Of a DNA stretch of 64,000 nt, positions 11,774-45,575 are shown in pieces (positions within the stretch are counted from its first letter, which is position 1; the number at the start of each line of letters is the position of its first letter). The translations under genes and the position numbers were made by a program. The DNA is from Spirochaetota bacterium. Lineage in GTDB: Bacteria; Spirochaetota; UBA4802; UBA5550. Under the pieces are notes generated by a model. It did not search any database. It was not told the origin of the DNA and was given only the letters and a program-made list of their open reading frames with translations. The stretch lies in contig JAKLIV010000001.1 in the NCBI GenBank assembly GCA_022709405.1, positions 49,952 through 113,951 on the forward strand. The letters are read 5' to 3'.

Positions 11774-11804
11774 TGTGTGTCTTTTTAGTGTATTGGAGGT
11801 AATT

Positions 11805-12815: not shown

Positions 12816-14427
12816 TGATATACTGAAAAGGTATTTTAGCGACATTGCCGGTTGCGGATTGCGTGATCTACAGGAAGCAGCGATACGACGCCTTCTCGAA
12901 GGTGGAAATACCCTCTGCCTCATGCCCACGGGCGGGGGTAAATCGCTCATTTACCAGGTCGCCGGTCTCTGCATTGGTAAAACGACACTGGTAATATCGC
13001 CGCTTATAGCTCTCATGTCCCAGCAGAATGAGCGCCTTATCGATCGAGGCGTCAAAACCTTGTATTTTCCCGGAGGAATAGGTGGAAAAGAGCTCTATGC
13101 CATGCTAAAGAAGCATGGAGAGGGCGATCCACCTGATTTCATTTTCATATCACCGGAGCGGCTCGAATTCGAGGGTTATTTTGAATTTATACTTAATAGA
13201 ATGCGGAATAGAATTGGCCTGGTTGTCGTTGACGAGGCCCATTGTATATCCCAATGGGGGCATACCTTCCGTCCTTCTTATAAGATGATTCCTCGTTTCC
13301 TTGATGATGTGTTTACCCAAGAGTCATGGCCTACAGTCCTGTGTCTTACAGCGACATTGAACAAGAAAGACCAGGGTGAGATTTCTGCTGACTTTCACAT
13401 CCCCGCAGATGGGATAATGAAAAGCCCTTTTCTCCTTCGCGACAACATTGCAATAACCGTGGCGAGAGATTTCAAGAATGAAGAGGACAAGAAATCCTAT
13501 CTTGAAACCTTGCTTTCCAAGCACAAAGCTGATAAAACAATAGTCTATGTTCATCGTAAAAAGGGTCAGTACGGAACGGAGTCCATGGCTGAGGAATTTT
13601 ACAATAAAGGTTTCAAATGTCTCTATTTCGATGCGGATCTATCAGAAAACCAGAAGGTGGAGGCGCTTGAGCGCTTTGAAAGGGGCGATGTTAAAGTTAT
13701 GTTCGCCACCGGTGCGTTCGGCATGGGTATCGATATCGATGATATCCGGGTTGTCATCCATTATCTTCTGCCGGAATCGATAGAACAATTTTACCAGGAA
13801 ATAGGCCGGTCCGGAAGAGACGGCAAGCCTTCATATTCATATCTCCTTTTCACTGAAACGAATATCAAGGTAAGGCGTGACTTGATACGAACAAGCATGC
13901 CAACGACTCAAGAATTGGCTGAAACTTTTACGAAGAGATTTATTCACGCCAGAGAAAGTAAAATCGATACCATCAACGCTTGGGAAGACCTGGCGGATAA
14001 TGAAAAGATATCCTTTCTGTATTTTCGGAAGTATGGTTTAATTGATGTTGTCGCGAAAGGGATACGCTCGATTAAAGGTTTCAAACCAGTCAAGCCTCTA
14101 AAAGAATTTGATGCATTCATGAAAACTTCAAAAATTGGTTCTGTCCTTAATATAGCTTCAAGAACACGAATTGATGTAAAAGGAATTATAAATAAGATAT
14201 ATGAATTGTTTACAATGGGTGATCTAAAACTTGAGAAGGCACCCAGCAAGTGTGTATTTTTAATAAAAAACAAAGAGTTATCCGATGAAATTCAACAAGA
14301 AATAATACGTGATATTGATGAGAAAGTTGCCTATCGTTTACAAGGGTTTGAGAAATTGGTTGTAATGGTGTTGGGGGGAGAGGATCCAACAGATGCGATA
14401 TGCACTCATCTCGGAATTGAAAAGTAA
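12784..14427 (+). CDS. RecQ-family SF2 DNA helicase (short form; no obvious HRDC)
   Basis: '[13 protein letters not shown]' (motif I), '[19 protein letters not shown]' (DEAH plus RecQ signature), 'LTAT' (motif III), '[20 protein letters not shown]', '[11 protein letters not shown]' (motif VI). The ATG at 12784 overlaps the upstream gene by 32 nt. Confidence 0.85.
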
Positions 14428-17500: not shown

Positions 17501-18270
17501 AAGGTGAACCAAAAATAGAAATTACTTTTTCAACACAACCAGGATACAGTTATTCTTTCTGGCCAAATGAACTCGGAGAAGATGGTAAATATCCCTTTGA
17601 ACTCGCTTATGCCATAACAGTTCATAAATCACAGGGTAGTGGTTTTAATAAGGTTTTCTTTGTACTCCCTTCTCAGGGAGCCATTCTTTCTAGAGAACTA
17701 TTATATACTGCATTGACAAGGCAGGAGGAGAAGATCATTATTCTACACCAAGGTGATTTTAGAGATTTTATAAGATTTGCAGGCACTGAAGCGTCGGCTA
17801 CTGCTAAGCGGTTTACCGATTTATTCTTCCTACCGGAAATTAAGCAGATTGAGAAAAAATGTTATGATGCTCGTTATATCAATGTATCGGAACGGGGAGA
17901 GCGGATGATCTCAAAAAGTGAGGTGATTATTGCAAATTGTCTGAATAAATATAAAAACGAGATCAGGTATGCATATGAAAACAAGTTAACGCTGGAATCG
18001 ACAGGTAGGACTATCAAGCCTGACTTTACGATAGAGCATCTTGGAACTGGAAAAGTATTTTACTGGGAACATCTGGGTATGATGACCCGCGAGGACTACC
18101 GAGAAAAATGGGAAAAGAAAAAACAAGGCTACCTGGATGATGGTTTTGTTTTTTTTACCGAACAAAAGGATGATGCGGACAAGGTGTTGATTATTACCGA
18201 GGAAAATCCTAATGGCGGAATTGACTCGCAGCACTTTGATGAAATTATTTGTAAATATATTTTAACATAG
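14509..18270 (+). CDS. 1253-aa protein: uncharacterised ~600-aa N-terminal region + RecD-like SF1 helicase + C-terminal PD-(D/E)XK-like nuclease
   Basis: 'LIGPAGSGKTTLL' (Walker A), 'IIIDESSML' (Walker B), 'ILVGDYRQLPPIG', 'AITVHKSQGS', 'LYTALTRQEEKIIIL'. C-terminus 'KPDFTIEH...VFYWEHLGMM' is nuclease-like. RBS AAGGAG lies before the ATG. Confidence 0.8.
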   Translation: MTLPVKHLSARVPWHDNRWNGTYCCNVLDNSFCRILPRIDDGKNPEKEPDGENITEDNFPPCIAEKGTFLSPCEYTRPLEHAWKDINPLYKEYLPGKYLHKPYSFNAVPFLWMMKANSKEGHTSDKAEIYGLDYQAELEEEIDKKLGFEGNTWVQHPQNQRVLLDSFFGCLKEYESLIFFYAKHTPLSEPNERIIIGVAKVRKIGDIQYYDFPKGYQGYKSYPWDRCVEHTLTKNNQDGFLLPYHELIEKSKTAEFDLREYAVIAPDFVQYSYASELVEHDTAIDSLWRMAESLRKSETTLGTSYKKELEWIDNEISRIWDMRGAFPGMGPVLSAIKITEGNTIAWEIEKHIRIKDEDLLKTNPWEVLQESISKPEKMFGERGKKLFNATMVRIWKSVPNDKKMFYQLLSRIQLSNEQAEIIIDEHADLIGLMDDIIKNPYLIYEKLRILYKGLITFNQIDKAVFPPLKIREAFPLDPASKMSDFLDERRVRAFAVMVLEEAADDGHSILPFQDVLNRISLKESAEDFPINEDILQSQAEEAFFQVEIELLKHQSLTFLKLQRLLEIKRLITQRINKQLNQKKTYNINYNWDEIVTNYFKKHQKGTAPVAIDEFEILARKEKAESLKILCNYRVSVLIGPAGSGKTTLLEMFEEIPEIIKGGLIKLAPTGKARVKMGHNAKTVAQYLYPTNRYDGYYGVYLTNEDGAKDSSARNIIIDESSMLTEEQLGAILDALGPMDRIILVGDYRQLPPIGTGRPFVDIVNLLKPEVFENPQIRIGHGYAELRQIRRQKKEIGIERKDIVLSRCFGDEPQKEEIELFQEIAGSLEKNNHIRLEKWYDSKDFRKKFENIIQEELNLDPADVIKTFNRTLGAKDIGDYQYFNYDYSENEIENWQIISPVNGYGYGVKEINKFIQSTYRKSFIDLAHNITHQKRRIAKPKGADNMVYGDKVISLKNNTWRDHQWIRPQSKKSEALNYFANGEIGVITGEFRGQKSNGKGEPKIEITFSTQPGYSYSFWPNELGEDGKYPFELAYAITVHKSQGSGFNKVFFVLPSQGAILSRELLYTALTRQEEKIIILHQGDFRDFIRFAGTEASATAKRFTDLFFLPEIKQIEKKCYDARYINVSERGERMISKSEVIIANCLNKYKNEIRYAYENKLTLESTGRTIKPDFTIEHLGTGKVFYWEHLGMMTREDYREKWEKKKQGYLDDGFVFFTEQKDDADKVLIITEENPNGGIDSQHFDEIICKYILT

Positions 18271-18394
18271 CATAAAACAGATATTCATATTTCCTGTGCT
18301 AGGCGGTAAATATAAGGTTGGCAATGGGTTGGCCAGTTTGTTCGGAGTGCAGGAATTAAAGTAAATCCGGCCAGTGAGGAGAGTTAATACCCCC

Positions 18395-20311
18395 ATGTCC
18401 CACCTCTATCCCCCATCCCTCGACCATCTCGACTCCCGCTTCGACGCGGAAAAGGAAGTCTTTGACCTCATGAAGGCCCTCGACGACTCGTACCACGTGT
18501 TCCACTCCGCTACCTGGAAGGATAACCGCGACGGCGAGTGTGACCTCATCATCTTCCACGAGCTCAAGGGCTTTATCGCGCTCGAGGTCAAGGGCGGGGG
18601 GATAAAGCATGACGGACAGCAGTGGACATCGTCCGGCAATAAAGGCGTATTTATCATCCATAACCCGATAAAGCAGGCACGGGACGCCATGTACGCGATC
18701 AAGCGCACTTGGGAAGAAAAATACAAAACGCCACTGCCGGGAACGTTCTCCTGGGCAGTATGCTTCCCCGACTGTGTGTGGGACAATTCCAGCCGAACAC
18801 TTGACCTTGATGAAAAGGACGTGCTCGATGCGAAAAAGATGGGTTCTGCCACTGCATGGATCGATGCGCGGTTCGCCGAAATGCACAATCGTCATGGAGC
18901 GAAAATCCTCTCCACCAACGAGTCAAAACAGTTCATCCAGCTTTTCAGCAAGACAATGTCGCTGACCCTGTCGCTCAACAGGGCCATCGTGCGCCAGGAG
19001 GAGGAGCTTCGAATCACTGACCGAATGCAGGACTACCTGCTCGACATCTTTGACGACAAGCACCGCATCGGGTTCCAGGGAGCGGCCGGCACGGGCAAGA
19101 CCTGGATCGCGATGAAGAAGGCGCGACGGCTTTCTGCCGAAGGCAAATCGATACTTTTCCTGAGTTACAATAGGCAGGTGAATGACTTCGTCGCCGGCAA
19201 GCTTAATGATACTAAACCGGTGACTGTGAAAACATTCCATGCGTTCGCCCAGGGAATCATCCGTGAATACCTCAAGGGGCACCTGGTTGACCAGGCATGC
19301 GTGAACTGCTTTTTTTCCTGTCTTGACGATATTAGCCGGCAGTTGAAACAGATCAAGGCGGGCGGGGATAATGATCCAGGTGAACCCAGGGGCAAAGAGC
19401 TGACGATTGACAATAAACTCAACAATGCCCTTCATTTTTTAAGCACCATCCCGGCAGGGACGCAATGCTCATCCATTCTTGAAGAGCACGGGCCCGGCAT
19501 GCCTGCCGCGGTGCGAATGGTAATGAAACATTTGCTCCCCGAAATCAAGGTGTCTGGAGGATACTACGAGGAGCGCATGCCGATGGCACTGATGTCAATC
19601 TTCATTGAAGAGCCGTCGTTCTGCGAGCGTAACCATTTCGACGCGCTCATAATAGACGAAGCCCAGGATTTTCATAAGGACTGGTGCGACTGCCTGCAGT
19701 CCCTGTTCCTCAAATACGAAGACCGCACCTGCTACATTTTTTACGATGACAACCAGACCATCTTTACGAACGATAAGGAACTTCCGGTTGTGGGCCTTAT
19801 CGGTTCTGCCGGTCTCGAGGACCACATATTTCGTCTAAAAGACAATCTCAGGAACACAGCCGCGATCCATGATTACGCGGTCAGCACAACCGGCAAGGGA
19901 GGCACGTCCCGTCCGTTTGAGATACCGGGCATAACGCCGATAGAGAAGACCGTGAAAAGCGATTCTGCGGCCCGTTCCGCTGTCGGCAATATTCTGGATG
20001 AGCTCATTGTGACGCACGGCATATCTCGAGACCGCATCGTGGTGCTGTCGAACCGAAGCATGGACAATTCGGTGTTTTCCGGCACACCCGCAGCAGGGGA
20101 GTATACCATGACCGAAAGCGCCGGTTTGCGTGGCAAGGGAGTGCGGTTCCGCACCATCCAGAAGTTCAAGGGCCTCGAGTCTGATGTGGTCATACTGATC
20201 GTCCACCGTCGCGCGCAGGACAGCGACGCGCGCTACCTGGCCGATGAGCTCTTATACGTGGGCTGCACCAGGGCGAAGCATGTATTGTACGTGGTGAATG
20301 TGGAGGGGTAG
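18395..20311 (+). CDS. NERD-domain nuclease fused to UvrD/Rep-like SF1 helicase
   Basis: NERD-like 'CDLIIFHELKGFIALEVKGG'. Helicase motifs 'FQGAAGTGKTW', 'LIIDEAQDF', 'KFKGLESDVVIL', 'LYVGCTRAKHVLYV'. ORF track starts at a GTG at 18374; the ATG at 18395 follows GAGGAGAG. Much GC-richer than both neighbours. Confidence 0.8.
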   Translation: MSHLYPPSLDHLDSRFDAEKEVFDLMKALDDSYHVFHSATWKDNRDGECDLIIFHELKGFIALEVKGGGIKHDGQQWTSSGNKGVFIIHNPIKQARDAMYAIKRTWEEKYKTPLPGTFSWAVCFPDCVWDNSSRTLDLDEKDVLDAKKMGSATAWIDARFAEMHNRHGAKILSTNESKQFIQLFSKTMSLTLSLNRAIVRQEEELRITDRMQDYLLDIFDDKHRIGFQGAAGTGKTWIAMKKARRLSAEGKSILFLSYNRQVNDFVAGKLNDTKPVTVKTFHAFAQGIIREYLKGHLVDQACVNCFFSCLDDISRQLKQIKAGGDNDPGEPRGKELTIDNKLNNALHFLSTIPAGTQCSSILEEHGPGMPAAVRMVMKHLLPEIKVSGGYYEERMPMALMSIFIEEPSFCERNHFDALIIDEAQDFHKDWCDCLQSLFLKYEDRTCYIFYDDNQTIFTNDKELPVVGLIGSAGLEDHIFRLKDNLRNTAAIHDYAVSTTGKGGTSRPFEIPGITPIEKTVKSDSAARSAVGNILDELIVTHGISRDRIVVLSNRSMDNSVFSGTPAAGEYTMTESAGLRGKGVRFRTIQKFKGLESDVVILIVHRRAQDSDARYLADELLYVGCTRAKHVLYVVNVEG

Positions 20312-27999: not shown

Positions 28000-29090
28000 A
28001 GTTTAGAAAAGAGGGCAATCTCCTAAGGTTGAGTCACCACAACCAAACCAGAAGGAGAAAGCCTCTTTATGAAGAAAGTAAAGAATACCCGGATAAAAGT
28101 CTACAAACATTTGCAGAATCATGAACGAGATGAAATTGCATATATGCTAGGACAAGGCTTTCGTCAGGTGGAAATAGCTGCCAGACTTGGTAGACACCCA
28201 TCGAGTTTGTCCAGAGAAATTAAAAGAAATGGTTCTTCGATTCGTGAAACTCGATATCGGGCAAACAGAGCCCAATTAAAGGCAGATGAAAGAAAACGAC
28301 TTTCTCATAAAAAAATGCGATTGAAGAACGATACAATCAGAAATTATGTGATCGAGAAACTTTCATTTGATCACACGCCGGAACAAATTGCCGGGCGAAT
28401 TCGTATAGAAAAACCTGGTTACACGACAAATTATGAATCTATTTATCTATTCATATATAATGAACGACCTGATTTGACTGAATATCTTGTCCGAGGAAAG
28501 CGGAAACGTCATAAAAGATCAATAAAACCGGGGAAAAGGATCGTTAAAATAGCCAATCGAACGATGATCAATGAAAGGCCCAAGAAAATCAATGAACGAT
28601 TGGAATATGGTCACTGGGAAGCGGATACAATCGTTTCACGACAAAGTAAGAGTGCTTTAGTCGTAGTGAGAGAACGAAAACTTCAACTTATGTTTATACG
28701 TAAAATTCCAAGAAAGAATGCAAAAAATATGAGGGATGCTGTTATCAGCATATTGGAGAAATTCCCCAAAAGGTTTTGCCGTTCAATTACTTTTGATAAC
28801 GGTCTTGAGAACGCCGATCATGAATTGATTTCAAGAAAACTGAAAGTAAAAACCTATTTTTGTAATCCATATCATAGCTGGGAAAAAGGCGGTGTTGAAA
28901 ACGGTATTGGTCTTGTAAGAAGATATTACCCGAAGAAAACAGATTTTTCATTGATTTCTAGTCAGGAGATTTATCAAATTGAGAAAAGGTTGAACAACCG
29001 GCCGAGAAAAACTCTTGGATTTCTGACTCCGTTAGAAGTTTATAAAAATTGCGCTTAGTCATTGAACGCGGGAATGAAAAAATGGAAAAA
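28000..29090 (+). mobile_element. IS30-family insertion sequence (approximate ends)
   Basis: Contains the transposase gene 28069..29058. Ends were inferred only from where similarity to the paralogous intergenic region (after 30988) is interrupted and resumes (~29095 'atttcacaacatg' vs 'atttctgcaacatg'). Terminal inverted repeats were not identified. Confidence 0.55.
28069..29058 (+). CDS. IS30-family DDE transposase
   Basis: N-terminal HTH 'ERDEIAYMLGQGFRQVEIAARLGRHPSSLSREIKRN'. DDE triad context: 'GHWEADTI', 'ITFDNGLEN', 'PYHSWEKGGVENGIGLVRRY'. Confidence 0.9.
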   Translation: MKKVKNTRIKVYKHLQNHERDEIAYMLGQGFRQVEIAARLGRHPSSLSREIKRNGSSIRETRYRANRAQLKADERKRLSHKKMRLKNDTIRNYVIEKLSFDHTPEQIAGRIRIEKPGYTTNYESIYLFIYNERPDLTEYLVRGKRKRHKRSIKPGKRIVKIANRTMINERPKKINERLEYGHWEADTIVSRQSKSALVVVRERKLQLMFIRKIPRKNAKNMRDAVISILEKFPKRFCRSITFDNGLENADHELISRKLKVKTYFCNPYHSWEKGGVENGIGLVRRYYPKKTDFSLISSQEIYQIEKRLNNRPRKTLGFLTPLEVYKNCA

Positions 29091-32219: not shown

Positions 32220-33209
32220 ATGGCAATTGTAGACAGGATCAAGTATGAACCGAAAAGCGGGAGCCAGATCGCGTGGAAGTTCCCGGGGGACAACATAAGG
32301 CTCGGTAGCCAGCTCATTGTAAACCAGAGCCAGGAGGCCCTGCTGTACAGGGATGGGCAGGTGACCAGGGTGTTTACGCCGGGGACGTACACGATCGACT
32401 CATCGAACATACCGTTTCTCGGAAAAATAGTCAACGCGCCTTTCGGCGGGGAGACTCCATTCAGCGTAGAGGTATGGTTTGTCAGCCGGAACGATCACCG
32501 CGACATGAAATGGGGAACAAAGACGCCGATACAGCTCACTGACCCGGTGCATGACGTGCCGCTCAGGGTAGGATCATATGGGCAATGGGGGTTCAGAGTG
32601 ACAGATTCGCGGACCTTCCTGGTATCGCTTCTCGGGGCCTCGCCGTCGGCGGATTCGGCCGGGGTGAACCAGTGGTTCATCGGCGAAATAATGCAGGCGT
32701 TCACCCGGGAGCTCGGCGAATTTATCATCGAGCGTAAAATATCGCTCCTGCATATGGCGACGCAGATCGAGGGCCTCGCAGATGCCGCGCGCAAGAAGAT
32801 CGCCCTGGTTTTTAAAAGCTATGGTATGGAGATTACGAACTTCACCATTGGGGCTATATCCATACTCGAGGAGGACCTGAAAAGGATACAGGACGTGCTG
32901 ATGCGCGGCATGGAGGCGAAACAGTACAGCAATGCCAGGTTAAACGAGAATTACGAGAAAATCAGGTCGCTGAATATATTGGAAAAAGCGGCCACCTCCG
33001 GCGCTGACGGGATCGTTTCCCAGGCCATGAGCGCATGCATAGGCCTCCTGGGAGCGGCAAACCTGGTCCAAAAGACATTCGGCGCTTCGCCTGAACATAA
33101 GCGCAGCTATAAGGAACGGCTTGCCGAAGCTGAAGAGATGTTCAGGGAGAAACTCATCACCGAGGAAGAATACCTGGAAAAGCGCAAAGATCTTTTAAGG
33201 GAGGTGTAA
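32220..33209 (+). CDS. SPFH-domain protein of the YdjI/COG4260 type with C-terminal SHOCT-like helix
   Basis: 'IAWKFPGDNIRLGSQLIVNQSQEALLYRDGQVTRVFTPGTYTIDSSNIPFL' matches the characteristic COG4260 N-terminus. C-terminal 'LITEEEYLEKRKDLL' is SHOCT-like. RBS GAGGAGGGG. Confidence 0.7.
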   Translation: MAIVDRIKYEPKSGSQIAWKFPGDNIRLGSQLIVNQSQEALLYRDGQVTRVFTPGTYTIDSSNIPFLGKIVNAPFGGETPFSVEVWFVSRNDHRDMKWGTKTPIQLTDPVHDVPLRVGSYGQWGFRVTDSRTFLVSLLGASPSADSAGVNQWFIGEIMQAFTRELGEFIIERKISLLHMATQIEGLADAARKKIALVFKSYGMEITNFTIGAISILEEDLKRIQDVLMRGMEAKQYSNARLNENYEKIRSLNILEKAATSGADGIVSQAMSACIGLLGAANLVQKTFGASPEHKRSYKERLAEAEEMFREKLITEEEYLEKRKDLLREV

Positions 33210-35656: not shown

Positions 35657-36928
35657 ATGATAACGAATATGACAACTAACAATAAAGAAATTAATAAAAG
35701 CGTGAAAGCTAATACTAATTTTTACATTGCAAACCAGATCACACCCGAAGGACTTGACGAAATCCAACGCTTGATACTGGCCCATTCCCTTGGCTTACAT
35801 GTCGCCTTAGAAGGCCCTCCCGGGGTAGGCAAGACAAAGAGTGTTTATGAGATAGCTAAAATACTGGGGCTACCACTTCACCTTAAATCATGTTCAAGCC
35901 GCACCGTGGAGTCGCATATAATCTCTTATCCGGTGCTTATGGAAAAAAATGGCGTCAGTATAACCGAACATGTGAACGGCCCTTTGTGCAGTGCCATGCT
36001 TGACGGCGGAATTTTCTACGGAGACGAGTTCAATCTGCTAAGATCTGATGTACAGAAGCGATTGAACAGCGCCTTTGATGATAGACGTACGGTTGACCGT
36101 AACGATGGCGCACAGATAACGGCGGCCCCTGGTTTCTGGGCGGTTATCTCTTACAATCCAACAGAAAATGTAGTAGCGAGAGATCTTGAGGATTCTGTTG
36201 CAGACAGATTTATTCACTTTTATTATGGACGATGGGATCCGGATTTTAAGGCATATGTTTCATCTCGAATTGCCATGGGGAAAAATAATATAAATACGGA
36301 TACCGCACAAGAATTTAATCTTGCGGCATCCTGGCGCGCTATTACACCGCAACTCGAATTTCTTTCTGGTAAGATCGAATCGGGAAAGTTTATATGGCGC
36401 AACTACTTCACCGGCGAACTGTGGAATGGAAAGCCACGCTATATATACCGAGTATGCGTAGGTAAGAGTATTACAAATGCTTCACTCCCTGTCGCTAAGA
36501 ACTATTCCTCAAACGCATTCGCACGTTTAATCTCACGCTTTACCGAAATCATTTACAACCTCGCAACCACAGGAAAATCGCCAATTCTGAATGAAAATGG
36601 CATGAAAAACATCTTAGATAACGAGGATCTTGAACTACTTTCAGTTCATGAAAGCTCAACCCGCATTGAAAGCGCAGCATTGTCACATTATAATGAACTA
36701 CTTCGCCGGGGATGCAATGCCGTTATTGCTCAAGCCTACTCAACGCGACTGGTAATAGACCAGATATGCTACGGCCAGTTCAGAGGTCGCAAACTCACAA
36801 GTTTGACAGTTCATGATCTGGTGACCGCAATCGCACGTTGTTTAAATTTGCTCGGAGAGCAAACCCGTTATAATACCACTGCAGAAACGGATCAGGCAAA
36901 TACAGCCGCAACAAGAGGAAATAAATAA
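35657..36928 (+). CDS. MoxR-like AAA+ ATPase (AAA_5 type)
   Basis: Walker A 'LEGPPGVGKTK', Walker B 'IFYGDEFN', then 'FWAVISYNP'. RBS AGGAGG. Confidence 0.8.
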   Translation: MITNMTTNNKEINKSVKANTNFYIANQITPEGLDEIQRLILAHSLGLHVALEGPPGVGKTKSVYEIAKILGLPLHLKSCSSRTVESHIISYPVLMEKNGVSITEHVNGPLCSAMLDGGIFYGDEFNLLRSDVQKRLNSAFDDRRTVDRNDGAQITAAPGFWAVISYNPTENVVARDLEDSVADRFIHFYYGRWDPDFKAYVSSRIAMGKNNINTDTAQEFNLAASWRAITPQLEFLSGKIESGKFIWRNYFTGELWNGKPRYIYRVCVGKSITNASLPVAKNYSSNAFARLISRFTEIIYNLATTGKSPILNENGMKNILDNEDLELLSVHESSTRIESAALSHYNELLRRGCNAVIAQAYSTRLVIDQICYGQFRGRKLTSLTVHDLVTAIARCLNLLGEQTRYNTTAETDQANTAATRGNK

Positions 36929-39900
36929 TGATATTTTCTAAAACATCCATCTTGATATCAAAATCATCACGGATCGCCATTGACGCGCTGTTCGGAAGCA
37001 GATCAAGGCACCACCAGATATTTTTAAATGCAGTTGAATACTATTTTGAAAATTCAAAAACCATCATGTATCTTGAATCATTTGTCGCGACACCAGGCTT
37101 CAACGATTTTATAATGAAAACTATAAAAACACCACCGAGTCGCCTACATATCATTTTTGAGGTTATTTTTGAATGTTTAAGGATCGGACGCGATCCCAGG
37201 GCTATTGTCTTGGCTGGTTGCCTGATAACATCTCAAAAATTCCAATATCTGCTTTCAACCTATTTCAGGCCCCCTAACGGACAACAGAACATTAAACGAC
37301 TCATGGAAGGAGTAGTAAACTATTTCATACGATCGCACACTAATACGAAAGAATTGAAAGGCCTGTTGTTTTCGAACGAATACGCACATTTACTGGAAAA
37401 TTACGAAAGCTATCCGGACGCACGAACATCAATAATAGACATGATATTGTATATCATGAAGGTAAAAGGATCAGCGGTATACGCCCGACAATGCGCCGAG
37501 ATACTCTCGGATGACTCGACCCGCAATCTTGTCCTCATGAGCGAAATTATCGGGACCAGGGATATTTTTCTCTCATCACTAACTTATGTATTTTCAAGGC
37601 AGCAGCACCCTGACCGGTTCTTTAATATGCTGCATATCTATCAAGAACACTATTGCCCTTCCCGATTAAATTCACCATCTGCAATAAATTCAAAATTTAG
37701 ACGTCTTGCCGATTTATGGCGCGTTTTTTTAAATGCCGGAGACAGCGATACCAGTACTATTGGGAAATTCATAACCATGTACGGGCATGATCGGAACGCC
37801 TATAAGAGATATATATGGAATATTGTTCTTGAAGCCGATCCTTCAACTTCGATGGAGGCCATATCTATCGTTATTTCGCAGGAATTCCAGGCTCTCTGCA
37901 AAAACTACATGAACGAAATAGATGCTGTTAAAATATTAATGCATAATATCATACAGGCCTTGAATATATCAGAAGGGAAGTACCGTAATGGCCTGATAAA
38001 AGCAATATTACGAACCAAGATTGATAAACAATCTCTTGCAAGGCGGGCCATATTTTTTGACTGGTTATTACAAAATGGGCGATCCCGTCGTATTGAAAAT
38101 GTTATAAATAATTATCTTTTTCATGAGCACATATACGATTCGCTAAGACGGGAATCGGGTACAGGAACTTGCAGATTACCTGAATTTTGCAATAAAGGAC
38201 ATAAATTATTTTGTCTTGTCATTGATAAGATACAGTCCAATTACGAAATCCCACCTGATATGCTTTTCAGGAGAATTATCACAAACATCCGGGATTCATT
38301 CTGGAAATCGGTGAATGATAAATTACCGGGCTTTGTCGGGAATATAAATGATATCAGGTCAATCGCTGAAATGGCAGGTTTAGAGGATGAGATTTTATGC
38401 GCCATGGAATCTATCAGAGATGAAGACTTAAAACACTACCATCGGAATCTTCTTTCAATATGGCTAAATTGCCCACGCTTTATAAAGAAAGCAGTTAGCC
38501 CTGACGACTGGTACAAGGTTGTATTCGCCGAGGCTCTCCCTTATTGCGTTGAAACAATTAGCCCAATAATCGGAATGATCAGTGTCCGCGAGTCAGGCGA
38601 CCAAAGGGCATTCACGAATGGCAAGGCTATTTATCTTCCGTCGTATGTTAAACTTTTCAATGATCCTTTCATGCCAATCGAATCAAACAGGAACCTGTCA
38701 ACATACATAGCATTAAGTCTTCATGAAGCAGGCCATATACTGTGCGGTTCATATCACTTCAACATCAGGGATTTTGTTAACAGCCTGGAGAGGCCTGATC
38801 TTTTTCGTTTGATCCATAACGTTTTTGAAGATTACCGTATTGAATCGTCTATCACCAGATTAAATATACATCCACAGGCAAGGGAGCTTTTTTCAATGGT
38901 CAATCGTAGCTATATGGAGAAAATGGGCGGCAGCAATATTTCTCCAGGAGCCTATTTTCTATTATATATCATGCACATGGCAAACAGTTACAATAATATC
39001 TCTCAAAATGTGGATTATTTCCCCGAAGCCAATGAATTTCTTGATATTGATTACTATTCAGGGGAGTTTAATGATCTTCATGAACTCGCGACATACGGAA
39101 TTAACTGCTTATTAAAGCTTGAAGTCGCCAATCCGCTTTCTGCAATAGTACTGGCTGAGAAATTTTATGATATCATGAAACACTGGCCGGATAATGCAAT
39201 AAACGGAATGTGCGAGACCATAATGCTGCCGCCTCCAGAAGTGATAAATGGCAGCCCGGGCAATAATTCAGAACCCCTCACGCGCGAACAACTGGACGAA
39301 CTTTACCAACTCTGCAACCGCGATATCGAATCTTTTCTCGATCGTCATGGCCTCAGAAAATTGCCTGCTTCCGAAGTAATGAATGGCGGCAACGAAAATA
39401 AATCAGAAAATTCATCAGGATATTGCATTCCTGATTATGAAATTCACGGGACTATTGACAAATCTACCAGAACACAACTGGATGACATTATAGCCGGTGA
39501 ACAGATTGAATTCAGGCCAAAGGATGATGAATGTGCGATCCTTGCATGGCGTCAGTCGAATATTCGAAAATCTGATTTATTGCAGGAAGAGGAGAGGAAC
39601 AGCCCATATGATATACTAGAAAAAAGTAAGATAAAACGAATCAAGGTCGGTTTAATATCTCAAACAAAGCTATCAGAATTAAAGGTGTTTAGTGTTAAAA
39701 ACATTAACTTGGCCTACCTCAAATTATTTCACCAGTGGGAACCGATTGTCAAGCGCGTATATGTAGAGCTATCACGTCTTATTCCTTTAATTGATGACGG
39801 GTATGAGATAACTTCCGAAGGAGATGAAATAGATAATGAACGACTCGTAGAATTATTAAGTGATCACAAGCATTGTTTCAATGCGCCCGATTTTTTTGAA

Positions 39901-40482
39901 ACACCCTCTGATGAAAGCAGGATTCCAGTTGAAGTATTAATTGGACTCGATGCCAGCGGGTCAACCATGGCAAGGATAAATAACGATGGTGCAACAATTC
40001 TGGACATAGAAAAGGCTTTCGCGATAATACTGGGCCGTGCATTGAGGTTTTTAACGCCTGACGTACGAGCATACGCTTTTAACTCACTAACTTCAACAAA
40101 CATATATCGCGCTGAATCATTCGAAGCAATATCAAGTTTCAAATCATCTGAAGGTAATCGTGACGGTGATTTCATACGATATCTGACATCACTGCTCAAG
40201 AAAAGTTCGGCTGAATCCCGTTTTATCTTTCTGCTTAGCGATGGAAAACCGAGTTCGATTAACTACTGGGGAACAGAGGCCATGGAAGACACACTTCTTG
40301 CTATGCGAGAGGCTGTCAATTCGGGGATCAAGCTAATATATTATAATTTCGATAGAAAAAAAAGCGACTATTTCGATATTCTTAAAAAAGAAGCCACCTA
40401 CGCAAGGTATTTTACTGACCCAACGCAGATTTTGCCAACGATTCCTGAAATGCTAAAAAGTATTACAACATCAGTGATTTGA
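36928..40482 (+). CDS. 1184-aa protein: unknown ~550-aa N-terminal region + metallopeptidase-like (HExxH) domain + C-terminal vWA domain
   Basis: 'AFTNGKAIYLPSY...LSLHEAGHILCG' is a DUF2201-like putative metallopeptidase pattern. 'VLIGLDASGSTM' is a MIDAS DxSxS motif about 230 aa from the C-terminus. The ATG overlaps the MoxR stop (TAATG). Confidence 0.75.
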   Translation: MIFSKTSILISKSSRIAIDALFGSRSRHHQIFLNAVEYYFENSKTIMYLESFVATPGFNDFIMKTIKTPPSRLHIIFEVIFECLRIGRDPRAIVLAGCLITSQKFQYLLSTYFRPPNGQQNIKRLMEGVVNYFIRSHTNTKELKGLLFSNEYAHLLENYESYPDARTSIIDMILYIMKVKGSAVYARQCAEILSDDSTRNLVLMSEIIGTRDIFLSSLTYVFSRQQHPDRFFNMLHIYQEHYCPSRLNSPSAINSKFRRLADLWRVFLNAGDSDTSTIGKFITMYGHDRNAYKRYIWNIVLEADPSTSMEAISIVISQEFQALCKNYMNEIDAVKILMHNIIQALNISEGKYRNGLIKAILRTKIDKQSLARRAIFFDWLLQNGRSRRIENVINNYLFHEHIYDSLRRESGTGTCRLPEFCNKGHKLFCLVIDKIQSNYEIPPDMLFRRIITNIRDSFWKSVNDKLPGFVGNINDIRSIAEMAGLEDEILCAMESIRDEDLKHYHRNLLSIWLNCPRFIKKAVSPDDWYKVVFAEALPYCVETISPIIGMISVRESGDQRAFTNGKAIYLPSYVKLFNDPFMPIESNRNLSTYIALSLHEAGHILCGSYHFNIRDFVNSLERPDLFRLIHNVFEDYRIESSITRLNIHPQARELFSMVNRSYMEKMGGSNISPGAYFLLYIMHMANSYNNISQNVDYFPEANEFLDIDYYSGEFNDLHELATYGINCLLKLEVANPLSAIVLAEKFYDIMKHWPDNAINGMCETIMLPPPEVINGSPGNNSEPLTREQLDELYQLCNRDIESFLDRHGLRKLPASEVMNGGNENKSENSSGYCIPDYEIHGTIDKSTRTQLDDIIAGEQIEFRPKDDECAILAWRQSNIRKSDLLQEEERNSPYDILEKSKIKRIKVGLISQTKLSELKVFSVKNINLAYLKLFHQWEPIVKRVYVELSRLIPLIDDGYEITSEGDEIDNERLVELLSDHKHCFNAPDFFETPSDESRIPVEVLIGLDASGSTMARINNDGATILDIEKAFAIILGRALRFLTPDVRAYAFNSLTSTNIYRAESFEAISSFKSSEGNRDGDFIRYLTSLLKKSSAESRFIFLLSDGKPSSINYWGTEAMEDTLLAMREAVNSGIKLIYYNFDRKKSDYFDILKKEATYARYFTDPTQILPTIPEMLKSITTSVI

Positions 40483-40584
40483 GCAAAAGATCGATATCAT
40501 ACATATCGATTTGATCAGTGATATTGTTATACAAGCAAAATTTTATAATAAAAGAGTTTAAAAACAATTACCGGGGGTAAACCG

Positions 40585-43500
40585 ATGAAGCCATATCTTA
40601 GGAGCAGCAATGCTCTTGCTTTTTTCCGTAGGCATGCTGAAGAGCAGAATGGGATCAAATCGGGCCAAAAAGTAGCCGGACATATTTCAGTAATTGAAAA
40701 ATATGCAGGGCAGGACGCAAAATCACGAGCATCGTTGAACGCGCTTTTCAGGGAGTTTCCCGGGATAAGGGAAAAGCAGGGTGAGGAAAAACTGCATCTC
40801 GTACTTGAACTCCTTTCACGCGGGGAATCACTGAACATACCCGCTACCAACATGATCTATGCAATCAGGCAATCGGCACGACTGCATTTCGGCAGGAAGA
40901 GCATGAATGAAGTTAGATGCGCATTTTACCTCATTATACCGGGAATACTGAGCAACGATGCCGCGACAGAAGGAGAGATAGACACTGTTGTTTACAAGGC
41001 GGACCGTTTTATAACGATGAACCGGCGGATGGTACTGGACGACAATGGCGGCAGATGCTCAAAATTGATCGCGGAAACCATACCCTGGGAGATCTGCGGG
41101 TCAATCGATATTGAAGATGCTTTTCTTATACTGCTGGGGCATATGGTTGATCTTGAATGGAACACAGAAAAACAGAGGAAAACTTTCATCGAGACAATAG
41201 CCGTAAATGCGGAGAAACTGAAGCTTTCATTTATAATTGATACTCTGAAAAATACACTGGAACAGTGGCCATGGCTCGGGAAAAAACGCTGTTCAGGATT
41301 GCGCATTTCGGTGAACACCTTGATTTTTGCATTAAAATCGAGCGTCAATTCAATATATTATGAAAACTCGCTGGTAATGCATTCTTTAAAGTATTTGATG
41401 AACAACTTCCCCTTATTCTACAGGGAAAACTACCTGCATACCATAGAATTATTTATCGAATTATCCCTTAATGCCGCAATTGCGGGGAAAAACCCGAGCC
41501 CGATAATGAAACTATGCCGGTACCTGATTGACCGTCACCCTGTCTTGAAAAACAAAAAGGGGGTTGAAATAATCACTCATTTGATCGAAGCGGCGATAGG
41601 GCAGGCAGGAATCGTATCATACAGCAACATGATAAGTTCAACATGCCGCATTCTAAATTTTCTAATCAGCGAGGAACGCGGGGATAACTGTAAGCGTGGG
41701 CGAATGGAAAAAAGCGACGAGTTGATTGCGCAAGCCGCAGTTTCCGGAGAGATCGGCCATCTCAAACCCCTGATCACCATGGCGCAGGAGGATGAGAACG
41801 CTCCCGGTTCGTCTGAGTTAAAAGAGCACATGTGCAGGTCAATTGAACTGATCGAGTATCTTCTGGAAAAAATAAAAATAAGCCGAATCGCACATGAAGA
41901 TCATCTCGATTACCAAAACGGCATCAAGGACGTTGTCGAACCATTCATTGCCGTGCTTAAAATGTTTCCGGCGCTCAGGGAGAAAAAAAATATAGAAAAC
42001 CTGTGCATCATCATGGACCTCGCGGTTAAATATAATGAAAAAAAATATGACGCATGGCAGCTTGTTGACCAAATAATATCACCGCTTTTAAATGATGACC
42101 CGTCGCTTGCGAAGGTTTCGGGCCTCGACCGGCTTAAAAAAACGTCCGACAAGGTAAGATTATTTCTCGATAAGAACCTGTTCCCGCGGGACATTGACGA
42201 CCTTGAAAGTGGGCCGGCAGCGTATCTTTTACGCATGCAGGAACTCCGGTATATTGAGCCCGATTTCTCTTCACCGGTCGACAGATTTCTCTATTATTTC
42301 CAGTTAGTTCAATCTTCTTCCAGAAGGATATTGTTCTCGGAATACACTATGATGCTCAACGAGTCAATGAACACCATTATCAAACCCATGCCTGATATTT
42401 TTAGCCGTGTCACTTTGACCGGCAACAAAATCGAATATGTCCGAAGGGACAACGAATCTCTGGAGCCGGTCAGGGAATTGCAGGAACATGTCATTCGGAT
42501 GATAGACGACCCGGAAATAACAATGAATCGGATAAGAAACCTGAAACAGATAGGCAAATCGCAAAAATCGGCGCTGGCATTAGTTCGGATATCTGATGAA
42601 AAAACGGCAAAAAAAATCGCCGCACATATTGCCATGCAGCTTTCTAAAAATTATCAGCCTGAACTCGCCTGCATATTACATGACCTGATTATCATGTTTT
42701 CACTATTTCATGAAACGTATCTATTAAAAGAGATACGTGAAAGCCGTGAAGAAGCCTGCGGGATCGCAATAAAGCAGCTCTATGAAGACCGCCTGTTTGA
42801 ATCATGTGATATGGTTTTGCCGGACGCGTATTTTAATTCTATTCTCGACAGGATCGCGACAACAGGAGGAGTTGTCATGACAGATGAAAAGCGGCAGGAA
42901 TTCCTCTCGTCACCCATTACCGGGAAAATAGCTATGGTACGGTCGGAACTAAAGACGCTGAACAGCCTGATAGCGGCATCGAAAAAAATATTGAGCATAC
43001 CGCAGATGGCCGAAAATGGAAGCCTTGACGAACGGAGTATGCTCATCGATGTCAAGTTCGCCATCGAAGGAAGGGGATTCGGCCTCGGTCTTTTTAGGGG
43101 TTTTATGGAATCAATTGTTCCTGCGCGCCTTGAAATTTTCGCACAAAATGACACAGTAAAATACCGTTTGAAGACCGGAAACCGCATACACGAACTTAGA
43201 AGTGATGGAAATTCACTGTTTATAAACGATAAAATATCCGCAGATAAAGATAATTCACATCACGCCAAGGCCGCCAGCATACTTGACGCGGTAAACAGTG
43301 CGTCTGCTTTAACCGAAAAAGAGCTGGAGCAGGCCGGGAAGATAGCACATTTGCTTAACCGGCACATACTGCCGCTTCTCGATGTGACCGACAGGAAAAG
43401 AATAAAGCAGATAAACAGAGCGCTTCAGTTCACGGCGAATACAACAGGCGATACCGAGGAGCTTCTTTTCGTACCAGCACGCGACCATTCGATGGTTTTC

Positions 43501-43959
43501 CGCGGAATGATCGGGAAAGACTGCTCTATGGGCAACACGCGACAGTTAAGCCAACCCGGCGCGTACTTCTATAAAATAATCCAGAACAGCATTTGGAAAG
43601 GGTACATCACCCTAATTGAACTCGAAAACCCGCAAGGCGAGAAGGCGCTGCTGTTCGATGTAATCAACGTCGATACCAATGAAAAGGTTGATTGGCTCGG
43701 GGTGTTTAACCGTTTCACGGAATACCTGTCGGGACTGGCCGTTAATCGAAAATGGCGGTATATTCTGTTGCCGGCACAATACACGTATATATCCAATTAC
43801 GATTATATACGTATGCCGATCGGTAAAGCCATGAGCGGTAAAAAAAGACTGCCAAAGGGTGATTTCACGCTCAGGGGAATAGAGTACCATGATAATCTTA
43901 AAACGGCTAAATTCCAGTCACTATCAGGGGACTTTATCGTTGTGTGGGAACGGGACTAA
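40585..43959 (+). CDS. 1124-aa hypothetical protein (orphan, third gene of the MoxR-vWA cluster)
   Basis: Long uninterrupted ORF, same strand, 102 nt after the vWA gene, with a GGGGG RBS. Predominantly helical-looking sequence. No catalytic motif recognised. Confidence 0.6.
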   Translation: MKPYLRSSNALAFFRRHAEEQNGIKSGQKVAGHISVIEKYAGQDAKSRASLNALFREFPGIREKQGEEKLHLVLELLSRGESLNIPATNMIYAIRQSARLHFGRKSMNEVRCAFYLIIPGILSNDAATEGEIDTVVYKADRFITMNRRMVLDDNGGRCSKLIAETIPWEICGSIDIEDAFLILLGHMVDLEWNTEKQRKTFIETIAVNAEKLKLSFIIDTLKNTLEQWPWLGKKRCSGLRISVNTLIFALKSSVNSIYYENSLVMHSLKYLMNNFPLFYRENYLHTIELFIELSLNAAIAGKNPSPIMKLCRYLIDRHPVLKNKKGVEIITHLIEAAIGQAGIVSYSNMISSTCRILNFLISEERGDNCKRGRMEKSDELIAQAAVSGEIGHLKPLITMAQEDENAPGSSELKEHMCRSIELIEYLLEKIKISRIAHEDHLDYQNGIKDVVEPFIAVLKMFPALREKKNIENLCIIMDLAVKYNEKKYDAWQLVDQIISPLLNDDPSLAKVSGLDRLKKTSDKVRLFLDKNLFPRDIDDLESGPAAYLLRMQELRYIEPDFSSPVDRFLYYFQLVQSSSRRILFSEYTMMLNESMNTIIKPMPDIFSRVTLTGNKIEYVRRDNESLEPVRELQEHVIRMIDDPEITMNRIRNLKQIGKSQKSALALVRISDEKTAKKIAAHIAMQLSKNYQPELACILHDLIIMFSLFHETYLLKEIRESREEACGIAIKQLYEDRLFESCDMVLPDAYFNSILDRIATTGGVVMTDEKRQEFLSSPITGKIAMVRSELKTLNSLIAASKKILSIPQMAENGSLDERSMLIDVKFAIEGRGFGLGLFRGFMESIVPARLEIFAQNDTVKYRLKTGNRIHELRSDGNSLFINDKISADKDNSHHAKAASILDAVNSASALTEKELEQAGKIAHLLNRHILPLLDVTDRKRIKQINRALQFTANTTGDTEELLFVPARDHSMVFRGMIGKDCSMGNTRQLSQPGAYFYKIIQNSIWKGYITLIELENPQGEKALLFDVINVDTNEKVDWLGVFNRFTEYLSGLAVNRKWRYILLPAQYTYISNYDYIRMPIGKAMSGKKRLPKGDFTLRGIEYHDNLKTAKFQSLSGDFIVVWERD

Positions 43960-44194: not shown

Positions 44195-45379
44195 CTATAA
44201 TTCATCGTATCCAATTGGTTTAAACAACGAATCCTGCACCACCTGTACCACGTCCCCCATATCATCAACATGATAATAATGCTGTGTCATCGCAGAGGTC
44301 AGGTGTCCGGTTAAACTCTGAATCTTATGGACAGGAACTCTGGCATTAATGAGAAGACTATTAAACCAGTGCCGCCATGAATGAAAGGTGATATTTCGTT
44401 CCCGACGCATCTGTTCGTTGATACCAATCTGTCTCATGGCGGTATAGAGAGAGCGGGTGAATACCTTCGGTTCTGCAGGTTTTCCCGGTGTCTTTTGACT
44501 GAAAAACACAAAGCTCTCCGGGTTATCCGGTTCAGGATTCATCTGCATAAGCTTAGAAAGTTCGATCTGGGTTTTAACAGGAAAAAAGATATTACGTACT
44601 TTCCCGGTTTTTGTTGTTTCATTCAGTCCAAAGAAATTATCCCATGACCGTCTCACATAAATGTACCCTTCATTAAGATGAATATCTGATAGGGTGAGTG
44701 CCTGTAATTCACCCAGCCGTAATCCGGTAGATGAGGCAAGAAGATTGCCGACATATCCCATATATAGCTCACGCGATGGATTGCAGTGTTTTGCCTCAGT
44801 TCTCCATTCCAGGGAAAAGAGTTGCCGTACTTCCTCAAGGGTTAGTATCCCTTTTAATTTTGGATTCATTGCAGCACGGTCAATCCTGGGCACAAATTGG
44901 ATTAATGACTGGTCTTCTGCGGCTTCAAGAATTGCCTTGAGAGCCGACAGGGTTTTATTGATAGTGTTGCCTGAATATCCCCTGTTAAAAAGGTCATTAC
45001 GGAGGTCTCGGATTACTGCCCGATCGATGTTGGTCAATCGCATAGACCCAATACGAGGTAAGAGATGGCTGTTCAGTATGTATGTCAGGTTGTGACATTG
45101 ACGTTTGCTGATTCGTAGCCCTCTGACTCGTTTATCCGTTGCCCAGGCGCCACCCCAATTGAAGAAATCCTTTGCATATTCTACAAGGGTAAGGTTTTCC
45201 CGGCGTACGATATTGCCGGCGTTCAAATACTCAATGCACCATCGTTCGGCAGCACCACGGGAAGTCTGTCCGGTGGTTTTGGCAACACTTCGGGTTCCAT
45301 CAGGGAGTCTGAATTGTGCGTAGTAGAAGCGGTTACGTTTGAAGATTGTGTAGGGTTTGCTACGGGATCCGTAATACAT
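44195..45379 (-). CDS. tyrosine recombinase / phage-type integrase
   Basis: C-terminal catalytic context: 'GLRLGELQALTLSDI', 'HSWRHWFNSLL', 'LTGHLTSAMTQHYYH' (R..HxxR..Y). GGAGG plus 5 nt precedes the ATG at 45379. Adjacent to the tRNA 3' end. Confidence 0.85.
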   Translation of the reverse strand: MYYGSRSKPYTIFKRNRFYYAQFRLPDGTRSVAKTTGQTSRGAAERWCIEYLNAGNIVRRENLTLVEYAKDFFNWGGAWATDKRVRGLRISKRQCHNLTYILNSHLLPRIGSMRLTNIDRAVIRDLRNDLFNRGYSGNTINKTLSALKAILEAAEDQSLIQFVPRIDRAAMNPKLKGILTLEEVRQLFSLEWRTEAKHCNPSRELYMGYVGNLLASSTGLRLGELQALTLSDIHLNEGYIYVRRSWDNFFGLNETTKTGKVRNIFFPVKTQIELSKLMQMNPEPDNPESFVFFSQKTPGKPAEPKVFTRSLYTAMRQIGINEQMRRERNITFHSWRHWFNSLLINARVPVHKIQSLTGHLTSAMTQHYYHVDDMGDVVQVVQDSLFKPIGYDEL

Positions 45380-45475
45380 CTTAACCTCCAAGCGAAAAGT
45401 GTGCTCACATGTTGCTCACACTTTACACTTTATATAGAGTTTTTTAAGATGCGCCGGTGGTCCGGTAGCCTCTTA

Positions 45476-45502: not shown

Positions 45503-45575
45503 TGGGCGCTGACGGGATCGAACCGCCGACCCTCTGCTTGTAAGGCAGATGCTCTCCCAGCTGAGCTAAGCGCCC
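45503..45575 (-). tRNA. tRNA-Val: tRNA-Val (anticodon TAC)
   Basis: The reverse complement GGGCGCTTAGCTCAGCTGGGAGAGCATCTGCCTTACAAGCAGAGGGTCGGCGGTTCGATCCCGTCAGCGCCCA folds as a cloverleaf by hand: 7-bp acceptor stem, GCTC/GAGC D-stem, TCTGC/GCAGA anticodon stem with loop CTTACAA, GGCGG/CCGTC T-stem with TTCGATC loop. No encoded CCA. Confidence 0.9.

Follow-up and report, generated by a model that had tools for sequence, protein, structure and literature searches.

The 64,000-nucleotide stretch of DNA analyzed here (the window; GenBank assembly GCA_022709405.1, contig JAKLIV010000001.1, positions 49,952 to 113,951, forward strand) belongs to the genome of an uncultured Spirochaetota bacterium. 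Between positions 35,657 and 43,959 of the window, it carries a triad of co-directional genes, encoding a predicted MoxR-class AAA+ ATPase, a 1184-aa protein with a domain of the vWA (von Willebrand factor A) type (the giant adaptor, or giant) and a third protein of 1124 aa. The locus is best described as a remodelling pair of a known type, with an oversized adaptor, joined in one lineage to a previously unmodelled GNAT-fold family. In the reading preferred here, to which a probability of roughly 55% is given, the pair is of the CbbQO/NorQD type, with an enlarged CbbO-like adaptor, and the GNAT-fold third protein is its likely client or output.

The locus contains the following features:

35657..36928, plus strand: ATPase gene, 423 aa, MoxR-class AAA+ by homology
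36928..40482, plus strand: giant adaptor gene, 1184 aa, NorD/CbbO-type vWA adaptor by homology
38500..38907, plus strand: CbbO-like module within the giant, aa ~525-660
39805..40479, plus strand: vWA domain at the C-terminus of the giant, aa ~960-1184
40483..40584, plus strand: spacer between the giant and the third gene, 102 nt, with a GG-rich ribosome-binding site
40585..43959, plus strand: third gene, 1124 aa, with a predicted GNAT-fold C-terminus
43387..43956, plus strand: predicted GNAT-fold domain of the third protein, aa 935-1124

Gene Structure and Selection

Base 36928 is common to the stop codon of the ATPase and the start codon of the giant (AATAAATAATGATA); this overlap of a single nucleotide implies coupled expression of the two genes. 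The third gene follows after an AT-rich spacer of 102 nt that ends in CCGGGGGTAAACCGATG. The ribosome-binding site and the start codon are kept in the relative at locus L002, the remainder of the spacer being only loosely conserved. The spacer holds no terminator-like site; a single weak one, at 40599-40618, falls just within the third open reading frame (ORF).

The genes of the triad are real and under purifying selection. Against a relative at ~73% nucleotide identity, the ratio of nonsynonymous to synonymous substitution rates (dN/dS, Nei-Gojobori) is 0.22 for the giant and 0.27 for the N-terminal 403 aa of the third gene, and the C-terminal part of the third gene gives 0.12 against another relative. 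A preliminary description of the locus, made from the letters of the DNA, had listed the three co-directional ORFs, the overlap of the first two (TAATG), the 102-nt spacer before the third and its G-rich ribosome-binding site, as well as the Walker A, Walker B, MIDAS (DASGST), FTNGKAIYLP and HEAGH motifs. Each of these was recovered at the same position and as quoted.

The ATPase and Its Adaptor

By its sequence, the 423-aa ATPase is a MoxR AAA+ protein, nearest to NorQ, CbbQ and midasin. It matches the Pfam family AAA_5 (4.7e-16), and a phmmer search against the PDB returned NorQ (9qhd_A, 1.8e-19), midasin (~5e-18) and CbbQ (1.3e-13). The alignment with NorQ spans Walker A (GPPGVGKT, aa 53-60, nt 35813-35836), Walker B (GDEFN, aa 122-126, nt 36020-36034), the sensor 1 motif SYNP and VADRF in the arginine-finger region. 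The protein ends in a C-terminal extension of ~220 aa without any family match; 53% identity is kept in the ATPase of a distant pair, at locus L001.

The giant had no full-length match in Pfam, NCBIfam or PADLOC, and its first ~520 aa match no family. Its relatives amount to three clusters (100%, 66% and 34% identity) among 5.8 billion clustered proteins, in which two further clusters have mainly the vWA domain in common with it. No transmembrane segment was predicted in the giant or in the third protein.

The vWA domain matches NorD in the PDB (9qhd_G, phmmer 1e-8) over aa 965-1179, to within a few residues of both C-termini. With hhalign against an alignment of NorD sequences, the match extends over aa 963-1180 of the 1184 (probability 98%, E 6.6e-14) and covers the segment equivalent to the pore-inserting "finger", as well as the extreme C-terminal tail. 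In the cryo-electron microscopy structures of NorQD, finger and tail are the two elements that dock NorD on the NorQ ring (PMC13036017). [quoted passage not shown] Judged by homology, the giant is an adaptor of the NorD/CbbO type, with its vWA domain at the extreme C-terminus.

Other searches returned the same domain. A profile of the giant recovered from the PDB only the NorD vWA domain and noise, and no relative was found with it in metagenome and viral contigs. On plasmids, all tblastn matches to the giant were genes of the NorD type annotated as "VWA domain-containing protein" (23-27% identity), and they were confined to the vWA domain; these plasmid loci are of the canonical norCBQD type (L017, L018).

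The HExxH Module of the Giant

The middle of the giant contains a distinct module. FTNGKAIYLP (aa 562-571, nt 38611-38640) is followed by HEAGH (aa 599-603, nt 38722-38736) and by EDYRIE (nt 38827-38844), 31-36 aa downstream of HEAGH. The pattern A[FY]T[ND]GK.I[YF]LP … SLHE.GHI..GS … EDYRIE is invariant in all three sequences of the giant family. Residues 562-660 match the 1473-aa protein P0004 (tblastn 4e-6, in a search made for another purpose; BLASTP 4e-9), and the corresponding region of P0004 matches the CbbO-sized P0005 (783 aa) at 3e-32. Both proteins are the vWA partners of ATPases with AAA_5 and CbbQ_C domains; the P0004 locus lies among genes of acyl-CoA metabolism and the P0005 locus among methyltransferase and MFS genes. 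Since homologues of the module occur in CbbQ-associated adaptors, it is a feature of CbbO-like adaptors and not an inserted peptidase.

At the position of HExxH, P0004 reads HQEAH and P0005 reads HLFYQ; the complete HExxH is therefore specific to the small family of the giant. At the position of EDYRIE, the two proteins read EDFRIE and DTARIE. The reading of the segment as a "metallopeptidase-like module" in the preliminary description is not supported: it is a domain common to CbbQ-associated vWA adaptors, among which HExxH is not conserved. In the giant, HExxH…EDYRIE may form a putative Zn site, with the Glu/Asp as presumed ligand; Zn binding or peptidase activity is conceivable for the module. 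A comparison with NorD's N-terminal domain (hhalign) gave a weak match of 29 columns at a probability of 20%. As a lead only, there are DUF2201-type "metallopeptidase + vWA-like" proteins beside MoxR, which we take to have a similar order of a "TDG..I..P" strand, HExxH and a vWA-like domain. In Pfam, neither PF13203 nor PF09967 matched the module of the giant with the threshold relaxed to E ≤ 5.

P0004 is also worth describing in its own right. In locus L012 (9159-14422 and 14726-18757), it adjoins a CbbQ-type ATPase, and a helical repeat (…SPxxIDRLGxEGL…) can be seen by eye every ~37-40 aa in its ~800 N-terminal residues. Genes for a GNAT plus histone-deacetylase protein and an acetyl-CoA hydrolase plus GNAT protein flank it on the opposite strand, which makes P0004 a second giant CbbO-like adaptor near GNAT-domain genes.

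The Third Protein and Its Predicted GNAT-Fold Domain

No motif was recognized in the third protein by searches against Pfam, NCBIfam, PADLOC and the sequences of the PDB. In this respect the preliminary description was right; its view of the protein as an orphan was not, as the protein belongs to a family of 36 representative clusters (E ≤ 1e-3, exhaustive phmmer against 1.84 billion representatives) and a GNAT fold is predicted for its end. A word-indexed search with the third protein returned nothing, missing even the identical copy on a JGI contig, and a profile search returned P0007 only. These nulls are due to the insensitivity of the tools, because exhaustive HMMER found the 36 clusters; "no homologue" in a word-indexed search is not equal to orphan status.

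The core of the family consists of the last ~190 residues, always located at the C-terminus, in proteins of 102-1438 aa. The middle of the third protein (aa ~457-935, within a wider shared region of aa ~457-1122) is common to a few large relatives, and the first ~450 aa are lineage-specific. Four relatives carry an M20/M28/M42 peptidase domain at the N-terminus, one of them together with HEAT repeats.

An alignment of 26 sequences (A3) shows six invariant residues in the C-terminal domain, namely P964, D979, C980, G1006, D1025 and N1071, while S1070, W1004, Y1007 and N1028 are near-invariant. The AlphaFold2 model from this alignment has a mean predicted local distance difference test score (pLDDT) of 88 and a predicted template modelling score (pTM) of 0.85. 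With Foldseek against the PDB, 49 of the 50 matches listed are GNAT-fold acyltransferases, with a probability of up to 1.0 and template modelling (TM) scores of 0.31-0.50 on the query and up to 0.67 on the target. Among those named are NatD, the ribosomal-protein-alanine N-acetyltransferase 7n1l, FeeM, GCN5, aminoglycoside acetyltransferases and GmvT; the named matches in the viral library are likewise GNAT-fold proteins. At the sequence level, the GNAT models of Pfam do not match the domain. Residues 935-1124 are thus confidently predicted to adopt a GNAT fold, of a family without a Pfam model, and the modelled domain is probably acyl-transferring. PcfJ-like phage proteins were seen among the weak Foldseek matches to the model.

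A lineage ~70% identical has the third gene in the form of two intact ORFs, divided near aa 800; two independent assemblies (L015 and L016) show this. In L015, they are arranged as follows:

3-842: scaffold ORF
867-1829: ORF of 320 aa with the predicted GNAT-fold domain

Selection on the downstream piece is strongly purifying (dN/dS 0.12). The split shows that the GNAT-fold domain can exist as a free polypeptide.

The giant and the third protein have no domain in common. An adaptor domain present in both, like the effector-associated domains of the systems of Kaur, was considered and rejected (hhalign probability 0.3%). On plasmids, tblastn found no match to the third protein, and a profile of the GNAT-fold domain returned only the P0007 contig from metagenome and viral contigs. 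Neither the giant family nor that of the third gene was present in the viral contigs scanned.

Gene Neighborhoods of the Relatives

Identical copies of the triad are present in several digester-type metagenome assemblies; E. coli genomes gave no match for the locus. Beyond these copies, the triad was seen in one relative at ~65% identity, L002, where the giant is 66% and the third gene 63% identical (the latter over 403 aa), with gene order and ribosome-binding site kept. At L001, the pair is more distant (ATPase 53%, giant 34% identity). The ATPase and giant genes as called overlap there by 8 nt, a convergent gene lies directly downstream of the giant, and the neighbors are PilZ, GH43 and GGDEF genes.

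The relatives of the third gene were found in six independent loci, none with MoxR or vWA genes within 8-10 kb or up to the contig end. The flanks in L022 and L023 reach only ~0.8-2.4 kb to the contig ends, and these two loci therefore carry little weight. Two spirochaete chromosomal neighborhoods (L004/L019 and L005) consist of ordinary genes, and the context of the first is conserved between two assemblies (L004, L019). In L020/L021 (8001-12083), the gene of the family member P0009 (1360 aa) follows immediately downstream on a type III CRISPR-Cas locus and the CARF nuclease Card1; the CRISPR-Cas locus comprises RAMP, Csm6-like, Cas6, Cas1 and two Cas2 genes, and P0009 occurs on eight contigs. 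In L024 (3624-7667), the surroundings of P0010 (1347 aa) resemble a mobile element: its neighbors are a HerA/FtsK-like ATPase, two single-stranded DNA-binding protein genes, a HepT/MNT toxin-antitoxin pair, SNase and PcfJ. The synteny sample of this family is small and its members are distant. The third protein is not an obligate partner of MoxR-vWA pairs.

Island Setting

The triad is cargo of an integrative island at a tRNA-Val gene in the Spirochaetota genome. To the right of this tRNA gene begins the core genome, with a GC content of 0.53-0.59 and housekeeping genes such as a Mur ligase and NfeD. To its left, ~43 kb have a GC content of mostly 0.33-0.47. The location at the integrase-proximal end of a defence-rich island, as given in the preliminary description, was borne out: integrase and tRNA-Val adjoin the triad, and the island contains several PADLOC matches. 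These are an HKD+Snf2 protein (C3a139, 4e-131), a type IIG restriction-modification/PglX-like methylase, a DpdF/PsyrT-like helicase (6e-90) and NERD+UvrD, together with PDC-S68, which is matched over its full length (E=0). A SIR2-like ORF beside the DpdF/PsyrT-like helicase and a WYL protein are also encoded in the island. The neighboring features of the window are:

2978..10108: HKD/PLD-Snf2 fusion and Eco57I/type IIG-like methylase
10790..14427: SIR2-like ORF, unknown ORF and DpdF/PsyrT-like helicase
14509..18270: PDC-S68 candidate defence protein, full-length
18374..20311: NERD-UvrD helicase
28069..29058: IS30-like transposase (HTH_38 and rve)
44195..45391, minus strand: tyrosine integrase of the island (Pfam Phage_integrase 3.1e-24, with SAM-like N-terminal domains), context outside the system
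45503..45575, minus strand: tRNA-Val (TAC), integration target (ARAGORN)

Two proteins with a DUF2779 domain are encoded on opposite strands, at 531-2216 near the left end of the low-GC region and at 21668-23656 in the middle of that region. A segment with core-like GC content (0.54 at 32-34 kb) lies inside the island at 32001-35417. Three proteins are encoded there: one with an SPFH/Band_7_1 domain, a membrane protein of 144 aa and a protein of 506 aa. In the last of these, a CxxC…CxxC ribbon at the N-terminus, leucine-rich repeats and, at the C-terminus, a hydrophobic tail that likely has several transmembrane segments can be distinguished by eye. An 84-aa membrane protein is encoded directly upstream of the ATPase. 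None of these four proteins is found beside the distant pair L001.

Sixteen nucleotides from the 3' end of the tRNA-Val gene (GGCGCTGACGGGATCG) recur as an exact direct copy 12.5 kb to the left (33000-33015 vs. 45505-45520; blastn-short E 0.003), in the C-terminal part of the SPFH/Band_7 ORF (32220..33209). This copy was considered as an attL site bounding a 12.5-kb element and set aside: the copy is coding and has no flanking similarity, and it is probably due to chance. It could also stem from an old att site or a nested element. Two contigs of independent metagenome assemblies, ERZ795054 (ENA, 19.4 kb) and JGI 3300025715 (13 kb), both begin exactly at window position 35245 (loci L006/L007), within the ORF of the 84-aa membrane protein. 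Three shorter contigs span that point. These observations point to differences between strains on the left side of the triad.

Proposed Mechanism and Alternative Explanations

The adaptor model of CbbQ6-CbbO1, with client capture by MIDAS through an acidic residue, is experimental (PMC4660213). Because of the homology with CbbQO and NorQD (PMC4660213; PMC13036017), a similar mechanism is proposed for the pair described here. A hexamer of the MoxR AAA+ protein would dock one giant through its C-terminal vWA domain, finger segment and C-terminal tail, and the MIDAS site would capture an acidic residue of the client. ATP hydrolysis would then twist or rotate the vWA domain relative to the N-terminal parts of the adaptor, and thereby remodel the client. 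The extra ~520 N-terminal residues and the HExxH module could provide client specificity or a second activity. The third protein, large and soluble, would most likely be the client or the output enzyme in this lineage. We infer the stoichiometry of one adaptor per hexamer, the twisting and the identity of the client. The linkage of the third gene to the pair is favored by the conserved ribosome-binding site, the spacer free of a terminator and the adjacency kept at ~65% identity.

Several observations weigh against this reading. Among the features of the motor itself, no Pfam match to CbbQ_C (PF08406) was found in the ATPase, and this domain is present in the ATPases beside P0004 and P0005. 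In NorQ, a helix-2-insert motif, GRxLL/IxxxxT, grips the finger of the vWA domain (PMC13036017); the aligned stretch of the ATPase is CSSRTVESHIISYPVL, in which the Arg is present and GRxLL/IxxxxT is not evident. In the giant, the Thr position of MIDAS aligns to Asn1077. The homologues of the HExxH module in P0004 and P0005 do not have the catalytic Glu, the module itself gave no peptidase match in Pfam (E ≤ 5), NCBIfam or a profile search of the PDB, and its AlphaFold2 model, from an alignment of three sequences, has a pLDDT of 41.5 and is unusable.

For the third protein, the TM scores of the Foldseek matches are moderate on the query (0.31-0.50). Moreover, the Q/RxxGxG/A loop that follows strand 4 and binds coenzyme A (CoA) is absent: the region reads LLFDVINVDTNEKVDWLGVF, and no Gly is conserved there in the 26-sequence alignment. 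The donor substrate, and even catalysis, are made uncertain by this missing loop, from which it would follow that the acyl donor may not be a CoA thioester. The linkage of the genes is affected as well. The 15-kb contig of L001 has no homologue of the third gene, and tblastn of the six third-gene loci found no MoxR or giant homologue. The adjacency in L002 may have been inherited with a single island segment (73.6% nucleotide identity across it) instead of being kept by selection for linkage. Finally, the interaction of the three proteins is a proposal drawn from the analysis and not a direct observation.

A certain chance, clearly below even, is given to the explanation that two unrelated units, a self-sufficient MoxR-adaptor module and an independent GNAT-fold gene, were joined by accretion in the island. 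Each of them occurs alone elsewhere, as the pair of L001 and the third-gene relatives in spirochaete chromosomes illustrate. They are separated by the AT-rich spacer of 102 nt, the sequence of which is poorly conserved and which gives the third gene a ribosome-binding site of its own, and hhalign finds no adaptor domain common to the two families. Against this, adjacency and orientation are kept at ~35% protein divergence and no terminator separates the giant from the third gene; furthermore, the lineage-specific ~450 aa at the N-terminus of the third protein could be a docking region.

The preliminary description had gone further and named the triad a candidate NTP-driven ternary conflict system, with the third protein as sensor or effector. 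That it is an obligate three-component immunity system of the vWA-MoxR ternary kind is now considered unlikely. The defence-rich island with its adjoining integrase, the co-directional genes with a terminator-free spacer, the lack of metabolic partner genes nearby and the third-gene relative beside type III CRISPR-Cas and Card1 are all in line with it. Its architecture, however, is unlike all four published classes (PMC7159879), and no match to VMAP, iSTAND, FtsH, a beta-propeller or PADLOC models was obtained. In addition, the triad is not conserved beyond close relatives, and the L001 pair and the P0004 and P0005 pairs lie among ordinary or metabolic genes. What stands of the earlier proposal is a coupled MoxR-vWA pair with intact ATPase and MIDAS motifs; its assignment to the ternary systems of the Kaur type does not, as the architecture differs and the diagnostic third component was not detected. 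The synteny of the third-protein homologues with MoxR and vWA genes, the absence of which the preliminary description had named as a refutation, did not hold as far as the data reach, the six loci having neither.

A role in conflict, whether defence or counter-defence, is plausible from the island context, by guilt by association; relatives of both halves, the pair and the third gene, also occur in non-defence contexts. A more detailed version of such a role would have the HExxH adaptor of the motor capture a latent GNAT-fold acyltransferase and free it, proteolytically or conformationally, from an inhibitory scaffold of ~800 aa, so that the freed enzyme modifies a target of the host or of the invader. 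As a description of the module in this island, it is rather speculative and probably incorrect.

It is also doubtful that the pair acts as a metal-insertion chaperone like NorQD, CobST or CoxDE, in which case the HExxH…E motif would deliver a metal to the client, possibly the third protein, instead of cleaving peptides. The nearest solved relatives, NorQD, do insert iron (PMC13036017), and P0004 keeps both His residues and EDFRIE with the catalytic Glu replaced by Gln, which fits binding rather than catalysis. P0005, however, has no second His, the third protein shows no sign of a metal site, and four relatives of the third protein have an M20/M28 metallopeptidase domain of their own, which this one does not.

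Finally, it is highly improbable that the third gene, perhaps together with the rest of the triad, works for the mobile element (in establishment or counter-defence) and not for host immunity. The locus lies directly beside the integrase, P0010 is surrounded by genes typical of plasmids and integrative and conjugative elements, and GNAT-fold proteins are common in phage genomes, but other family members have stable chromosomal contexts, conserved in two assemblies (L004, L019), and no viral contig carried either family and no plasmid the third gene.

Significance

MoxR-vWA pairs are widespread and, to our knowledge, clients are known for only a handful of them (Rubisco, the nitric oxide reductase cNOR, chelatases and CO dehydrogenase). 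The region preceding the vWA domain in CbbO-like adaptors has been described as being without discernible homology (PMC4660213). This region holds a recognizable module, which links CbbO-sized adaptors to giants of 1184 and 1473 aa. The full HExxH…E in one small branch hints that the module descends from a metal site or can work as one.

Furthermore, a conserved GNAT-fold family outside Pfam, with an invariant Asp-Cys, is predicted to end varied large proteins, of which some are fusions with M20/M28 aminopeptidases and others are encoded beside CRISPR-Cas or in mobile elements. If the triad is one unit, it would offer a tractable model of a MoxR motor handing a client to an enzyme. Should a role in phage defence prove true, the NorQD/CbbQO branch would have its first defence system. 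The families concerned are all very rare, which limits the wider importance of the locus as long as no function is demonstrated.

Comparison with Known Systems

The pair resembles NorQ-NorD and CbbQ-CbbO in several respects. The AAA+ core is nearest to NorQ and CbbQ, the vWA domain lies at the very end of the giant, with the finger equivalent and the tail included in its alignment to NorD, and the genes of ATPase and adaptor are adjacent and coupled. The middle module of the giant is shared with CbbQ-associated vWA proteins. The differences are nevertheless substantial. A client operon (norCB, cbbLS/cbbM) was not found among the ORFs of the window scanned against Pfam, which agrees with the earlier statement that nor, cbb and cob genes are not nearby. 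The giant is 1.5-1.9 times longer than NorD or CbbO, with ~520 unique N-terminal residues, and its HExxH is complete, whereas its CbbO-like relatives read HQEAH or HLFYQ. The ATPase, unlike NorQ and CbbQ, has a C-terminal extension of ~220 aa and no CbbQ_C domain. Moreover, the locus is in a mobile island, and Asn stands in place of the MIDAS Thr.

The predicted fold of the last 190 aa of the third protein is that of the GNAT superfamily. The domain differs from this superfamily by the missing pyrophosphate loop and the invariant Asp-Cys pair, and by its location, always C-terminal to long variable regions, with an M20/M28 domain at the N-terminus of four relatives.

For the components of the ternary systems, Pfam holds VMAP-C/-M, iSTAND and bpMoxR models. 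On the third protein and the giant, no Pfam match of any kind was found, and none to VMAP, iSTAND, FtsH or a beta-propeller. In PADLOC-DB 2.0, the ATPase gave matches at the level of the P-loop only (MkoA 1.7e-4, IetA 1e-3), and nothing was obtained for the giant and the third protein, so that no known defence model matches the triad. The ternary systems described by Kaur, Burroughs, Iyer and Aravind (2020) are derived from CoxD/CoxE, with variable effector domains C-terminal to vWA, and their third component is VMAP (VMAP-C), iSTAND, FtsH (double FtsH) or, in fusion with the vWA protein, a beta-propeller, which defines four classes (PMC7159879). The triad shares with them the combination of MoxR, vWA and a large third protein, the proposed role in conflict and a peptidase-like module on the vWA protein. 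Here, in contrast, the vWA domain forms the last ~225 aa of the giant and the best relatives are NorQD and CbbQO, not CoxDE; the third gene is dispensable in relatives, and the components are not conserved neighbors. On the grounds of these homologies, the pair is placed outside the published ternary systems and the systems covered by PADLOC, and belongs with the NorD/CbbO branch of the MoxR-vWA proteins.

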